DNA from: a virus
Lineage: Duplodnaviria > Heunggongvirae > Uroviricota > Caudoviricetes
Direction: 5' to 3' (one strand)
Virus record (IMG/VR): IMGVR_UViG_3300037504_000201
Location: 64,001 to 77,750 of that record
DNA length: 13,750 nucleotides
Shown here: positions 3,433 through 12,511 of the stretch, in pieces
How the letters are laid out: each line of letters starts with the position of its first letter
Numbering within the stretch: position 1 is the first letter of the stretch
The notes under the pieces: generated by a model
Told to the model about the DNA's origin: nothing
The model's database searches: none
What the model saw: only the letters and a program-made list of their open reading frames with translations
Translations under genes and position numbers: made by a program

Positions 3433-3461
3433 TTGACGGCGGGGTAGAACGGGGGTAGAAT
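3433..3461 (+). promoter_or_regulatory. Rightward sigma70-type promoter with no supported protein gene behind it
   Basis: TTGACG (3433-3438), 17 nt, TAGAAT (3456-3461). Confidence 0.6.
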
Positions 3462-6111: not shown

Positions 6112-6197
6112 AGTATACACGGAATCGGGTATACTGTCAAGCAATTGATGGCAAATGATGGCAAATGCTTGACAAGATTTAACAAATGGCTTATAAT
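6112..6197. promoter_or_regulatory. Main divergent control region
   Basis: Minus strand: TTGACA (6140-6135), 17 nt, TATACT (6117-6112), with inverted repeat AGTATAC-N10-GTATACT. Plus strand: perfect TTGACA (6169-6174), 17 nt, TATAAT (6192-6197). GATGGCAAAT occurs twice in tandem (6147-6166) between the -35 boxes. Confidence 0.85.
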
Positions 6198-6238: not shown

Positions 6239-6652
6239 ATGGATTGGATTAAAGGATCGGAAATTGCTATCGAGGTGTACGAAGAGAATCGGGATCGACT
6301 GGCTAACAAGCTAGTCGATGCTTGGGCCGTCAAGTGCGCGGAACTTGGTATCGGCGTGACCGACGAGGATTTTGTCGCCGCCAAGGACGAGTTCTTGAAC
6401 CGGTTTTTAGGCGCGCCGCGCAAGGCCAAGTCCGTGCCCACCCCCAAGCGCCGCATCGCCGTGTATGACATCAAGGATTGCGATTACTCCTTAAAGTTCT
6501 CAACATCCGATATGGGCATCGTGGCCCAGGCGCGCGAGATGGGCAACGTGTACGAGATATTCGAGGGGAAGTACGCGTTTTACGTGAGCCGTTGCTACGA
6601 CTTTTACGAGGTCGTGGCGTGGCTCGAATCTTTTAATGAGGAAGGAGAATAA
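6239..6652 (+). CDS. Hypothetical protein, 137 aa
   Basis: RBS GGAAGGAG at 6223-6230; first gene behind the consensus promoter. Confidence 0.85.
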   Translation: MDWIKGSEIAIEVYEENRDRLANKLVDAWAVKCAELGIGVTDEDFVAAKDEFLNRFLGAPRKAKSVPTPKRRIAVYDIKDCDYSLKFSTSDMGIVAQAREMGNVYEIFEGKYAFYVSRCYDFYEVVAWLESFNEEGE

Positions 6653-8574: not shown

Positions 8575-9576
8575 ATGACCAACAAACTTTTAGCCGCAGA
8601 CCTTGGCTACGGATTCACCAAAGGCCAGGCCGTCATCAATGGGGAGACACGCAGCACCTTCTCCCCTTCTGCCGTCATTGTGCGCCCGCCCGTCGGATTC
8701 TCAATCGGGCAAAAGCACATCGGCGTCGAGATCGACGGTGTACAGTACCTGGTCGGCAGCCAAGTGCGCAAGCTGGTCCCCACTGACCGGGACCACCAGT
8801 TGACGTCGGACTGGACCAAAACCGACGAATGGCTGGCGCTATTTATCACGACCGCGAGTGTCTTGTTCCCCGGCGGCGGGCAGATTGCCGTGTGTACCGG
8901 GCTACCCTTGGGGCACTACACTGAAGAGAACAAAGCGTTCCTGCAAGAGCGCATCCAAGCCGTGACGTCCATCACGCCCCTGGAGGGGGACCCCATCGCC
9001 GTGGACTTTACGACGGTGCGCGTCGTCCCGCAACCGTGGGGCACGTTCCTGTCGCTGGCATTCGACGCGCGGGGGGAGCTGACCAACGACGCGTTACTTG
9101 ACCGCCGCGTGCTGGTCGTGGACATCGGCAGCCGCACGACTAACCTGCTGGTCACCATCGACCTGGATACGGTGGACGAGGAAAGCACCACCGTGCTGGA
9201 AGGGCTGTGGGATTGCGCCGCCCGGCTCAAGGCGTGGGCCGAGGACGAGGGGCAACCCATTACGTCCGCCCAGGCACTGGATTCGCTCAAGAGCGGAAAG
9301 TACCGCTGGCGCGGGCGCGAGTACTCGTGCCGTGATACCGCCGACAAGATTCTCAACGACTTTGCCTATCGGGTGCAATCCGCAATCAGTGCCCGCTCCG
9401 GCAGCGGACTTGGCCAGATTGATAAAATCTTGGTCTCCGGTGGCGGTGGCGCGATGCTCAACGGGCGCCTTCAACGCCTGATCGACCACGGCGACATGAC
9501 CGTGGTGCCAGACGCCTTCTGGGCCAACTCAACCGGCTACATACGCTTCCTGCGCTTCTTACAGAGTCGGCAATGA
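8575..9576 (+). CDS. parM: ParM/StbA-family actin-like ATPase
   Basis: Phosphate-1 ADLGYGFTK, phosphate-2 VVDIGSRTT and adenosine VSGGGG motifs, plus TGLP and VVPQPWG. 333 aa. Confidence 0.9.
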   Translation: MTNKLLAADLGYGFTKGQAVINGETRSTFSPSAVIVRPPVGFSIGQKHIGVEIDGVQYLVGSQVRKLVPTDRDHQLTSDWTKTDEWLALFITTASVLFPGGGQIAVCTGLPLGHYTEENKAFLQERIQAVTSITPLEGDPIAVDFTTVRVVPQPWGTFLSLAFDARGELTNDALLDRRVLVVDIGSRTTNLLVTIDLDTVDEESTTVLEGLWDCAARLKAWAEDEGQPITSAQALDSLKSGKYRWRGREYSCRDTADKILNDFAYRVQSAISARSGSGLGQIDKILVSGGGGAMLNGRLQRLIDHGDMTVVPDAFWANSTGYIRFLRFLQSRQ

Positions 9577-9863
9577 GCGCCGTTACGCAGACCATCAGCT
9601 TTTTCACCGATGGGCCGGGCTATCAATATTTGCAAGCCTTGCCTGCCGGTGAGCGGTCAAGCTGGGTCCGCTCAGCGTGCGACGCCGCAGCGCAGGGCGG
9701 TGAAGAGCGACCTGGCGAACTGTTGCAAGAGATCGTCGAGCGACTTGACCGGATCGAGCGCAAACTGACCGCCGGGCACGTCGCTCGCCAGCCGGTCGAG
9801 ATGGCTGACAGCAATAACAGCGATGACCCGCGACTGGACAAGCTAACCAATCTTGGGCTATAA
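9573..9863 (+). CDS. ParR-like small DNA-binding adaptor (RHH-type N-terminus)
   Basis: ATGA overlap with parM. QTISFF...YQYLQALPAGERSSWVRSAC has the beta-alpha-alpha pattern, followed by a short coiled coil and an acidic tail. Confidence 0.65.
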   Translation: MSAVTQTISFFTDGPGYQYLQALPAGERSSWVRSACDAAAQGGEERPGELLQEIVERLDRIERKLTAGHVARQPVEMADSNNSDDPRLDKLTNLGL

Positions 9864-9868
9864 TGGAG

Positions 9869-9910: not shown

Positions 9911-10180
9911 ATGGCGACGACAGGAGAGTTGGTTTATCGCGTGCTGGTCAGCACCGCAGCCGGCTATGTAAAGTACATCGAAGAAGAAGACGCCAAGCTG
10001 CTCAAGTTTTGGGGCAGCGTCTACGGACAAGGAGACATTCAAGCGTGGGCAAAAAGTCAGATCGAAGAGATCGCCGAAAGAGCAAGCAAGATCAACCTGG
10101 ATTTAGACCAACTCACATCTGCCCGGAGTGCGGCGGCCCGACACATCGAACGACTGGACCGGGCGGGCTATCAGTTTTAG
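9911..10180 (+). CDS. Hypothetical protein, 89 aa
   Basis: ATG at 9911 after RBS AGGAGGAG (MATTGELVYRV...). The track start at 9863 has no RBS and runs through the hairpin. Confidence 0.8.
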   Translation: MATTGELVYRVLVSTAAGYVKYIEEEDAKLLKFWGSVYGQGDIQAWAKSQIEEIAERASKINLDLDQLTSARSAAARHIERLDRAGYQF

Positions 10181-10202
10181 ATCGGGTGGTACGAGGATTG
10201 AG

Positions 10203-10232
10203 TTGACAGCCGGGCCAGGTTTGTGGTAGAAT
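10203..10232 (+). promoter_or_regulatory. Sigma70-type promoter for the methyltransferase operon
   Basis: TTGACA (10203-10208), 18 nt, TAGAAT (10227-10232), with a TG extension. Confidence 0.7.
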
Positions 10233-10258
10233 AGTTTTACAATCAAATAACCAAGTGG

Positions 10259-10375
10259 CCGTGGCAAGCCCAATCAGACAGTAAACCGCGCTACTATTCA
10301 GCGCCGGTAGCCGCTACCTTTGTCTGGGTAATTGCCACCGGCACCGGCTCTGAGTAGTGACGCGGTTTTTTTATT
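10259..10375 (+). ncRNA. Structured leader RNA with two interleaved pairings and a terminator-like end
   Basis: A (10261-10280, GTGGCAA..CCCA..CAGACA) pairs with A' (10321-10338, TGTCTGGG..TTGCCAC). B (10283-10308, AAACCGCG CTACT TCAG GCCGGT) pairs with B' (10343-10368), followed by a T run. The order is A-B-A'-B'. Confidence 0.6.
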
Positions 10376-10397
10376 CCCCCACACGCAAGGAGAAATA

Positions 10398-11939
10398 ATG
10401 GATAGAATCAAAATAGAAGACGTTGTAATTGTCGAGAGCAGACAACGTCGCTTGAGACGATGGCAGGTCGAACGCATTGCGAGCAAAATGCAAGAGAAAG
10501 GCTTTAACGTCTCGTACCCAATTACATTGGAGATGGATGGACAATCATTGATTGACGGTGGGCACAGGTTGGCAGCGGCAAAAGAGGCTGGCATTGAATC
10601 TGTGCCTTTTATCGTTACGGACGAGGACCCCATAGCCCATTCAATCCGCTGCAACTCGGACGGCGAGGACACCGAATCGCATGACGTGTTCGACTTGGCC
10701 GTTCTTTGCTCGAATATGTCCAACGATGGAATGACCGGCGCCGAGATCGCGCAAAGATTGGGATGGAGCACCGCTCCAATGGTTACCTATCATAAGCAAA
10801 TCAAGGAACGCCTGCATCCGAGGTGCTTTGATTTAGCTACCGGGGAATTAAATAAAAACGATAATTTGTTTAATAGCATCGACGACGATTCATTTAATCC
10901 ACAATTAAATAAATTTAATTGGCGAGTAACGCATCTTATGGAAATCGTCTCCGAAATCCCCTACACCGACCGGGCGAGTTACCGGGCGCAATGGCGCGTT
11001 ATCTCTCAGATACTTGAGCTTGCGGACAATGATAAGAAGATCACCGCTGCCAAGATCGCCAAGATCGCCAAGCGCGAATCATGGCACGCGCAACTAGGGC
11101 GTGTGATACGTGACGAATTGCTTCAGGATGTTCCATTGCGCGACTGGATAAGGCTGTGGCATAGCGTTAGGCATGGTGTATTTGGTGACAAGCAAGATGA
11201 TGAGGACTTGAGCAAGATCAAGCAAGCCATTGCGGCGCTAAATGAGCGTGCGACGGGCGTAAAACTATACTGCGATGACGCTGCAAAGCGGATACCGCAA
11301 CTTGATGATAATTCTATCGCCCTGGTTGTGACAGATCCCCCCTACAACGTCACAGATTATGATTGGGACGACAAGGGCACGCCGGATGAGTACGTGCAAT
11401 GGCTGATTGGTATACTGGAATTACTCAAGCCCAAGCTAAAGCAGGACTATCACTTGTTTATGTTCTGCGCGCCACAGCACGAAGCAGTGATAGAGATTGC
11501 ATTGCGTAACGCTGGATGGCCCATTAAGTCAAAGGTGATTTGGGAGTATCGCAATCTCGTGCAAGGTCGTGACGTAAAAGACAAATTCATCGTCAACTAT
11601 CAGCCGTGCTTCCACATCGGTACCCATGCGCTGAACTGGTCGCCGGAATGGAGTGATAAACGATTTGCCGTCCAGAATCACGCAGCGCCACAGAGTAACT
11701 TTAAAGACGGCAAGGATCACCCGCACCAAAAGCCGATTGAACTAATCGAGCTATTTGTTAAAATCGGAAGCAGCCCAGGCGATATAGTTATAGACATGTT
11801 CGCCGGAAGCGGCACGACCGGCACGGCTTGTAACAATCTTGGCGCGCGAAGATGCGTACTGATTGAACAAGATGACGATTACTGCTCTGTGATAGAGCGC
11901 AAGTTAAAGATAAGGAGAATATCTGAATGGCAGGGATAA
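10398..11939 (+). CDS. ParB-N (ParBc/Srx) domain + HTH + N6/N4 DNA methyltransferase (beta-order motifs) fusion, 513 aa
   Basis: ATG at 10398 after RBS AAGGAG. ParB-like PITLEMDGQSLIDGGHRLAAAKEAG; HTH GMTGAEIAQRLGWS; catalytic VTDPPY precedes HPHQKP and the SAM-binding DMFAGSGTT. Confidence 0.9.
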   Translation: MDRIKIEDVVIVESRQRRLRRWQVERIASKMQEKGFNVSYPITLEMDGQSLIDGGHRLAAAKEAGIESVPFIVTDEDPIAHSIRCNSDGEDTESHDVFDLAVLCSNMSNDGMTGAEIAQRLGWSTAPMVTYHKQIKERLHPRCFDLATGELNKNDNLFNSIDDDSFNPQLNKFNWRVTHLMEIVSEIPYTDRASYRAQWRVISQILELADNDKKITAAKIAKIAKRESWHAQLGRVIRDELLQDVPLRDWIRLWHSVRHGVFGDKQDDEDLSKIKQAIAALNERATGVKLYCDDAAKRIPQLDDNSIALVVTDPPYNVTDYDWDDKGTPDEYVQWLIGILELLKPKLKQDYHLFMFCAPQHEAVIEIALRNAGWPIKSKVIWEYRNLVQGRDVKDKFIVNYQPCFHIGTHALNWSPEWSDKRFAVQNHAAPQSNFKDGKDHPHQKPIELIELFVKIGSSPGDIVIDMFAGSGTTGTACNNLGARRCVLIEQDDDYCSVIERKLKIRRISEWQG

Positions 11940-12511
11940 CAAGGGTGAACATCACCGACGGTGTCAGTGGTCGCGGCGCGCAAAGATTTAGGGATGCGCA
12001 AAGACTGTGGCCCGTTGCTAATAAATTATACAGGGAAATCTTTAATGATATGGGATGCTCTCTTAAAGACGGTGATGCGCTACTCGATTGCGCGGGTGAT
12101 GAATTTTACGCCGGGTACGACCACTCGCTTGGGATAGACACGGTTTTAAGAACTGAGCAAGGTAACATACTCACAATGCAAGAGAAGTTCTTGTTTACGC
12201 CATTTAACACTGTTACTGTTGAGTATATGCAGAACCAAACAACGGGCGAGCATGGCGATTGGTTTAATATCAAGTGCCAGCTTTACTTTGTGGGCTATGA
12301 TTATCCCCAGACGGGTAAGAGATTTGTTAGTTGGATTTTATTGGATTGGGCGCGCGTTGTCTTGGCGACGCAAAAGGGTCAAATAAACTGGAAGCTAAGG
12401 CCAAATAAATGGGATGGAGCAAAAGCAAATTTTAGATACGCCTCAATAGCTGATATTCCAAAATATTGCTGCATTCGCAGGGGCGGCCGTTGGCAGGATG
12501 GTAGATTATAA
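11927..12511 (+). CDS. PD-(D/E)XK-like nuclease-fold protein
   Basis: RBS AAGGAG at 11912-11917; start overlaps the methyltransferase 3' end. GID-x11-TMQEK...TVTVEY resembles a PD-(D/E)XK core. Confidence 0.55.
   Translation: MAGITRVNITDGVSGRGAQRFRDAQRLWPVANKLYREIFNDMGCSLKDGDALLDCAGDEFYAGYDHSLGIDTVLRTEQGNILTMQEKFLFTPFNTVTVEYMQNQTTGEHGDWFNIKCQLYFVGYDYPQTGKRFVSWILLDWARVVLATQKGQINWKLRPNKWDGAKANFRYASIADIPKYCCIRRGGRWQDGRL

Follow-up and report, generated by a model that had tools for sequence, protein, structure and literature searches.

A possible terminator/antiterminator gate in the leader of a phage methyltransferase operon

Introduction

What does a long, strongly structured leader RNA do in front of a phage DNA methyltransferase gene? 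The question arises from a locus in the IMG/VR virus record IMGVR_UViG_3300037504_000201, the sequence of an uncultivated phage, of which we analysed the last 13.75 kb (of 77,750 nucleotides, nt) as one stretch, called the window throughout. A leader of 161 nt here precedes an operon of two overlapping genes, for a methyltransferase with a ParB-like N-terminus and for a nuclease-like partner. Such methylase/nuclease pairs of phages need careful control of dose and timing, and the known controls are C proteins, self-regulating methylases and antisense RNAs.

A preliminary description of this DNA had read the leader as an RNA switch built from two interleaved complementary pairs, A:A' and B:B', the second of which looked like a terminator. 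Our tentative answer, to which we would give not quite an even chance, is that the leader could be a cis-acting kinetic gate of the terminator/antiterminator kind, placed before the methyltransferase/nuclease-like operon. We favour a gate in which A:A' forms first because of several things taken together, among them the promoter, the GC-rich stem with its run of seven U (U7), the order of folding, the shuffle tests, and the recurrence of the design in front of homologous gene pairs at two other loci, L162 and L083.

Results

Leader layout and predicted terminator

The elements that had been noticed in the leader, namely the B:B' and A:A' pairs, CAGACA/TGTCTG, GGTAGC/GCTACC, a tandem repeat and a run of seven T, were all found where they had been placed (Table 1). 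The RNA is predicted to start near 10240, as judged from promoter spacing alone, and to have its 3' end near the U7 tract; it would then consist of a 43-nt 5' segment followed by an 86-nt imperfect hairpin with a GC-rich base that leads into U7. The lower stem of this B:B' hairpin has 28 bp, interrupted by two 1x1 mismatches and one bulge, and carries a small apical stem-loop. Its base, CCGCG/CGCGG, is directly followed by the U-tract, as in an intrinsic terminator; the hairpin alone has a predicted energy of -49.3 kcal/mol, and is about four times as long as the ordinary, compact 20-24-nt terminators of this phage. The whole leader folds to -55.5 kcal/mol (z -4.1), and none of 200 shuffled sequences was as stable.

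The terminator lies between the promoter and the first start codon without an intervening gene, which is the arrangement of an attenuator, and 25 nt separate the U-tract from the methyltransferase ATG (10398). No promoter-like site was found between the terminator and the ribosome-binding site, and no other terminator closes the operon upstream; the methyltransferase operon therefore needs read-through of the terminator. The leader contains no ATG and no mini-open reading frame (mini-ORF) preceded by a Shine-Dalgarno sequence.

Within the terminator hairpin, AUUGCCAC (10331-10338) is the sole internal loop, on the 3' side, in both the minimum free energy (MFE) and the centroid structures. This loop holds a perfect 7-nt complement to GUGGCAA (10261-10267), the core of segment A, which is itself unpaired with a probability of about 0.8-0.9 in the full-length ensemble.

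Order of folding

Which of the two helices would form first during transcription? Folding of successive transcript prefixes gives an extended A:A' hairpin as the MFE structure of transcripts that end at 10335-10350 (-31.8 to -38.6 kcal/mol), with GUGGCAAGCCC paired to GGGUAAUUGCCAC, CAGA to UCUG, and an inner hairpin made from B. The terminator is the best fold only for 3' ends from 10355 on, where it reaches -53 kcal/mol. The proposal that A:A' precedes B:B' is thus borne out by predicted cotranscriptional folding, in which A:A' comes first at -37.5 kcal/mol. As two states, A:A' (-38.6 kcal/mol) and the terminator (-52.7 kcal/mol) are separated along the direct path by a barrier of up to about 30 kcal/mol in a nested-pair model, because all A:A' pairs cross all B:B' pairs. 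Prefix folding, the two states and the barrier together describe, in silico, an alternative structure that forms earlier than the terminator and would be mutually exclusive with it.

Could such complementarity arise by chance? In tests in which the 5' segment alone was shuffled, the observed prefix energy or interaction gain was matched by 5-7 of 1000 shuffles; the gain itself is -13.0 kcal/mol, a value reached by 5 of 1000, and the duplex energy alone was matched by 26 of 1000. By itself, the A:A' complementarity of the window is moderate evidence, and it becomes strong only jointly with L162 and L083.

Leaders of the same design at two other loci

In L162 and in L083, the stretch immediately ahead of the methyltransferase start is non-coding, and each has a hairpin there. 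At L162, TATAAT (21-26) is followed by a leader that ends in a 70-nt hairpin and U6, 15 nt before the ATG; at L083, a 70-nt hairpin with a perfect 21-bp stem has a U-rich tail that almost touches GAGGAG, and a stop codon at 22-24 leaves no space for a promoter of its own. No sequence similarity was found among the three leaders, and neither L162 nor L083 gave a match in Rfam at E up to 1. The shape of the hairpin is common to all three, with a lower stem of about 28 bp in the window, 18 bp in L162 and 21 bp in L083, topped by a small apical stem-loop.

In all three hairpins, the 3' side also carries a single, asymmetric internal loop (7-9 nt), which in each case is perfectly complementary to the 5' segment. 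The match is 7 nt long in the window (loop AUUGCCAC, 5' complement GUGGCAA; equalled in 140 of 20,000 shuffles), 10 nt in L162 (loop GCAUCUA, 5' complement UUAGAUGCGU; 0 of 20,000) and 9 nt in L083 (loop AAUCCGUUU, 5' complement AACGGAUUU; 9 of 20,000); control segments (downstream, reversed or parallel) gave matches of 3-7 nt only. Beyond the loop, the complementarity takes in bases that have partners in the terminator fold: it reaches 17 bp in L162 and includes GCCC/GGGU and CAGACA/UGUCUG in the window. When the 3' arm of the hairpin is removed, the 5' segment of the other two leaders pairs over a long range with the hairpin interior in the best fold (-28.8 kcal/mol, z -3.2, for L162; -22.9 kcal/mol, z -1.8, for L083). 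The energy-based test is significant in the window (5 of 1000 shuffles) and in L162 (2 of 1000).

Compensatory change is therefore seen at the level of the whole helix, as the same layout in unrelated sequence. This whole-helix covariation, tied to a homologous gene pair, is our chief ground for saying that A:A' looks selected and not accidental. The preliminary description had counted a lack of covariation among homologues among the signs against its switch; at the level of whole helices, these two leaders of unrelated sequence supply such covariation.

Mini-ORFs of nine codons run over segment A in the window (GTG 10255 to TAA 10284) and in L162 (AUG 35 to UAA 64), and in both leaders the stop codon reaches into the beginning of the terminator stem. 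The L162 AUG lies about 9 nt past the -10 hexamer, which would make its mini-ORF nearly leaderless. Attenuation by a leader peptide was given low weight, as the mini-ORF of the window lacks a Shine-Dalgarno sequence and L083 has no such ORF; the two mini-ORFs may be chance.

How common are such leaders? Among the seven loci with a visible upstream region, three have a hairpin leader before the methyltransferase; L082 has a helix-turn-helix gene in this place, and the remaining three have other coding sequence. The earlier remark that gating of this kind would be unusual needs softening accordingly, given a terminator hairpin directly before the methyltransferase in three of seven. At L082 (48-323), a promoter that resembles the one in the window, TTGACA-18-TACACT, is followed by AAATAACCAAG, a 68-amino-acid (aa) helix-turn-helix gene and then the methyltransferase. 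This gene suggests that the leader occupies a regulatory slot, and perhaps a protein controller has been exchanged for an RNA one.

Two further candidates were set aside. The 11-mer AAATAACCAAG, common to the window and the L082 promoter region, was considered as a conserved operator, and rejected since it is found mostly as AAATAACCAAGGAG (leader plus ribosome-binding site) in phages that are unrelated. L287 was considered as a fourth leader; what had looked like a leader there is probably an ORF of 67 aa with translational coupling, and the shuffle test was not significant.

Searches for relatives

The curated riboswitch and leader families of Rfam 15 gave no match at gathering score anywhere in the window. 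The C4 family, which covers P1 C4 and P4 CI, gave none either, at gathering score over the whole window or at E up to 10 on 10150-10450, and the likeness to C4 that had been drawn for this leader is therefore one of analogy only. The hairpin (10283-10368) produced only below-threshold look-alikes among microRNA hairpins. Leader homologues were absent from cultured phages and plasmids by blastn, and a single-sequence covariance model of the leader recovered nothing but itself among 32 loci, which included the whole phage genome.

Searches by protein were similarly sparse. IMG/VR was queried with the methyltransferase, its closest homologue, the ParM-like protein, a degenerate DVFDLAELC DNA pattern and two alignments of the partner; these scans found no close relative and returned only L287, L289 and L290. 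Scans of metagenomes and genome collections, dominated by the generic methyltransferase motif, added only L082, L083 and L162, and two metagenome-assembled genomes with methyltransferase hits led to searches of their phyla, over 401 and 285 genomes, in which no further gene pair appeared. Using tblastn with the methyltransferase or the partner, no full-length relative was found in cultured phages and plasmids, and the partner had no homologue there.

The gene pair and its genomic setting

The methyltransferase matches PF01555 at 1.9e-34 and, in PHROG, a methyltransferase with a ParB-like N-terminus; it has 483 homologues, hundreds of them metagenomic, the closest of which is 68% identical, and their alignment is consistent with an N-terminus at ATG 10398. 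Its partner has 92 homologues, time and again on contigs of lengths that also occur among those of the methyltransferase homologues. By tblastn, the two lie side by side in L082, L083, L002, L162, L003 and L004, and form a conserved overlapping pair, mainly on metagenomic contigs, with L287 among its loci. The N-terminal domain of the methyltransferase differs between loci (ParB-like or other), and the partner is constant.

What is this partner? Its AlphaFold2 model has a predicted local distance difference test score (pLDDT) of 88.9, and its best structural matches by VIA-align are nearly all PD-(D/E)XK restriction enzymes or Holliday-junction resolvases (Z 4.4-6.3), DpnI, PvuII, MspI and Hjc among them; Foldseek gave E = 0.05 or worse. 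D65, D71 and Q85-E86-K87 are invariant or nearly so. From such modelling, 'nuclease-like' is a reasonable name and plain 'nuclease' a weakly supported one, and the pair is a candidate restriction-modification system. The operon had been put forward as one of a ParB-methyltransferase and a nuclease: the methyltransferase half of this is secure, and the nuclease half would need the weaker wording.

At the junction between the stop of the partner gene and the next start, we also observed a reverse promoter, TTGACG-18-TATAAT (11/12 match; window 12534-12505, minus strand), which faces antisense into the nuclease-like and methyltransferase genes and has no convincing ORF behind it. Its position resembles those of the reverse promoters of EcoRI and Eco29kI (PMC3874152). 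Read on the minus strand, the leader hairpin followed by UUUACUGU could be the end of an antisense RNA.

The record has an estimated completeness of 86%. By a rough gene map, its structural block occupies about 20-64 kb on the minus strand; an arm on the plus strand begins at 6239 of the window and extends off the contig end, and would continue into helicase, primase and RNA ligase genes if the genome is circular or permuted. The leader sits in this replication arm, between the ParM-like operon and the methyltransferase operon. The upstream operon has a promoter at 6169 that is a perfect match, and the genes just upstream of the leader encode 105 aa and 96 aa. A promoter-like site, TGGACA-18-TATAAT (11/12; window 9835-9864), has its -10 overlapping the ATG (9863) of the 105-aa gene, and may be another promoter of the leaderless type. 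GC content is about 0.60 upstream, falls to 0.44-0.51 over the leader, the methyltransferase and the partner (window 10001-12500) and is higher again past 12500, as would suit a cassette that was acquired and has its left boundary at or near the leader. No tRNA or tmRNA was found.

Promoter-like sites are about three times enriched in the window (20 against 6.3 expected from shuffles). Because the -10 context GGTAGAATAG is common to the leader promoter (10203) and the promoter of a short RNA unit at 3433, we place the former in the phage's own promoter class. The TACAAT hexamer at the predicted transcript start may be there by chance, or may serve as a sigma-dependent pause element like the one at lambda PR'. 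The tandem ACCGGC region (10335-10348) has an exact complement of 14 nt, GCCGGTGCCGGTGG, at about 19118 of the genome on the minus strand, inside a 74-aa ORF; matches of this type are expected by chance at about 0.07, and the sequence is GC-rich and repetitive.

Table 1. Features of the leader and its neighbourhood (window coordinates).
Feature	Position	Strand	Details
Sigma-70-type promoter, predicted	10203-10232	+	TTGACA-18-TGgTAGAAT, extended -10; 11/12 match
-10-like hexamer	10238-10243	+	TACAAT, at predicted transcript start; read from sequence
Segment A	10255-10280	+	Core GUGGCAA 10261-10267 in loop of weak 5' hairpin, then GCCC, CAGACA
Segment A'	10321-10344	+	Core AUUGCCAC 10331-10338
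A:A' repeats	10255-10267/10332-10344		13 nt, 85%
A:A' repeats	10275-10280/10321-10326		CAGACA/TGTCTG
Inverted repeat	10306-10318		GGTAGC/GCTACC
Tandem repeat	10336-10347		CACCGG
Terminator hairpin B:B', predicted	10283-10368	+	86 nt, imperfect; B 10283-10308, B' 10343-10368, 26 nt, 85% complementary
U7 tract	10366-10372	+	Predicted 3' end of short RNA of ~131-134 nt
Shine-Dalgarno sequence of methyltransferase	10388-10393	+	AAGGAG; 5 nt before ATG 10398, 15 nt past U-tract
N6/N4 DNA methyltransferase with ParB-like N-terminal domain	10398-11939	+	513 aa; first gene behind leader
Partner, PD-(D/E)XK-like fold	11927-12511	+	194 aa; 13-nt overlap with methyltransferase
ParM-like partition gene	8575-9576		In operon with two small genes, upstream of leader

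Discussion

How might such a leader work? We posit that the promoter at 10203 would start the RNA, and that A would capture A' immediately upon the exit of A' from the polymerase, 10-30 nt before B' emerges, closing a loop that contains B. To wind around part of a closed loop beyond roughly one turn, a strand must pass one of its ends through the loop, and here the polymerase would be holding the 3' end; with A:A' closed, B' would be barred from B, as the lower stems have 18-28 bp (about 28 bp in the window, more than two helical turns). The B:B' helix being blocked, polymerase would pass U7 and transcribe the methyltransferase/nuclease-like operon. If A were kept from A', or if A:A' melted in time, the 86-nt hairpin would close, transcription would stop near 10370 and an RNA of about 133 nt would be released. 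Were the hairpin to form first, the free 5' end would remain able to form 7-10 nt of pairing, less than one turn, with the displayed loop, which would explain why A' is left unpaired in the terminator fold; the mechanism would also explain complementarity that runs past the loop into terminator-paired bases, as in the window and L162. The sequence elements, their predicted order of folding and the recurrence before homologous gene pairs are what the analysis shows; we infer where transcription starts, that it terminates, that the two helices exclude each other in space and that any factor exists to set the on/off ratio, and the topological exclusion is an argument rather than a computed result.

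Several considerations weigh against this gate. At full-length equilibrium the terminator dominates, with pair probabilities above 0.99, and any antitermination would therefore have to be purely kinetic; the figure of about 30 kcal/mol for the barrier is an upper bound, as the model forbids pseudoknots. In classical antiterminators the stem bases are shared; here the A' core stays unpaired in the terminator fold, which a tertiary loop contact would explain as well as a competitor would. For L083 the energy-based test falls short of significance (113-310 of 1000 shuffles), and the comparators are two in number, both short metagenomic contigs that are not alignable base by base. Of the switch first proposed, the terminator, the in silico order of A:A' before B:B' and, through L162 and L083, the A:A' pairing all stand, and the leader may instead be a pseudoknotted terminator.

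Such a pseudoknotted terminator could be constitutive, behind an always active promoter and stopping most transcripts at U7, with read-through given by a processive antitermination factor or a fixed leak, following the logic of lambda PR'-6S RNA-tR'; the contact between A and the loop would then act as a tertiary clamp, giving the short RNA its shape or stability or hastening the folding of the hairpin. By analogy this is attractive, since a strong promoter, a short RNA and a strong terminator right before an operon match a lambdoid late unit, down to TACAAT at the predicted transcript start; moreover, the A' core is unpaired in all three leaders, matches of 7-10 nt within one turn suit a loop contact, and L083, without space for its own promoter, has a hairpin that would gate read-through from the upstream gene. 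We nevertheless consider it unlikely. No Q-, N- or other antiterminator-like protein was recognised among the scanned genes, most of whose proteins match no family; the operon lies in the replication arm and not among late genes; and the complementarity that continues past the loop in the window and L162 is needed by a competitor, not by a clamp.

Perhaps, instead, the short RNA is the product that matters: a stand-alone small RNA acting in trans, with a terminator that does no more than close it and the upstream operon, and with a methyltransferase operon expressed through leak. At least two other units of promoter, short RNA and terminator exist in this phage (window 3433-3534 and genome 20213-20330, plus strand), and the released RNA is predicted to have an accessible 43-nt 5' tail and a U-rich 3' end. 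There is also the precedent of IsrK RNA of Gifsy-1, of which a terminated leader isoform can act on its own read-through isoform (PMC4825925). However, no target stands out in the 77.7-kb genome, where about nine complementary 11-mers compare with 4.6 expected and the one 14-mer is GC-rich and in a coding region; the leader has no paralogue in the genome; and in each of three unrelated leaders, segment A has its best complement within its own RNA. Nor does the RNA have an anti-Shine-Dalgarno 5' end, unlike the units at 3433 and 20213 with their CUCCUU-type 5' ends; the motif is absent from the leader, and a trans-acting RNA of that particular kind was rejected. Overall, we judge a small RNA of this sort improbable.

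Least probable, in our view, is that the hairpin is a plain terminator at an operon boundary, a processing site for RNase III or a palindrome that matters as DNA, with the upstream complementarity arising by chance. It is the sole terminator of the operon that starts at 6169, none preceding it, and the 7-nt match in the window alone has p ~0.01-0.02. A near-continuous helix of 24-28 bp is long enough for an RNase III substrate, and this hairpin has one. Yet an ordinary boundary would have the reverse of the promoter-then-terminator order found here, the phage's normal terminators are about a quarter of this length, and the match between loop and 5' segment occurs in three independent leaders, for which shuffle counts put the joint chance far below 1e-6.

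If the kinetic gate that we favour is right, it would be controlled by RNA only, with a competitor aimed at the displayed loop of a terminator rather than at its stem, unlike textbook attenuators. It would give methylase/nuclease cassettes another control route, and one by which they could move between phages together with their own control. The design is compact and mutable, with 7-10 nt on each side, and would lend itself to study of the contest between long-range loop capture and terminator folding during transcription. Would this extend to a class? We can imagine, with more doubt than for the single leader, an undescribed class of self-contained 'topological lock' gates, in which a long terminator displays a loop and a 5' segment captures it before closure, and which travel with mobile phage methylase/nuclease cassettes or are recruited by them. 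Gates of this type would set the timing and dose of a potentially self-toxic gene pair without a dedicated controller protein.

Comparison with known systems

In function, the leader is a transcription attenuator, as far as its predicted layout goes, and belongs with the terminator/antiterminator leaders that the PASIFIC predictor models (PMC5314783). With trp, PyrR and T-box leaders and with riboswitch platforms, it has in common a promoter-proximal terminator before the first gene and an earlier alternative fold that excludes this terminator. In those systems, however, the competitor pairs with the 5' arm, whereas here it would pair with the internal loop and the apical part, and because it targets loop and apex the exclusion would be topological rather than through common bases. 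Unlike classical attenuators, the leader has no recognisable aptamer, convincing leader peptide or site for a binding protein.

A lambdoid late unit likewise has a strong promoter, a short RNA and a strong terminator directly before the operon, and is released by the antiterminator Q. The likeness to lambda PR'-6S RNA-tR' extends to a promoter that is strong and looks constitutive, a terminated RNA 130-200 nt long, the terminator before the operon and the -10-like hexamer at the start; it ends at Q, for which neither a gene nor a binding element was found here, and at the genes that would be gated, which belong to the replication arm rather than to lysis or structure. P1 C4, P4 CI and N15 CA are also phage leaders with segments A, B, A' and B' that decide the early end of downstream transcription. 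Once processed out, these RNAs work as antisense RNAs against sites of an antirepressor or replication operon, while the partner of A here would be the terminator loop of its own leader.

The purpose would be one that restriction-modification control also serves, namely holding a methylase/nuclease pair at a low or timed level. In the review PMC3874152, such control is by C proteins, by autoregulation of the methyltransferase and by antisense RNAs from reverse promoters, the last treated at length; the word 'riboswitch' is absent from that text, and 'terminator' appears once, concerning the Fst toxin-antitoxin system. Parallels to two of these controls were seen: the helix-turn-helix gene of L082 sits where a C protein would, and the reverse promoter at 12534-12505 recalls antisense control.

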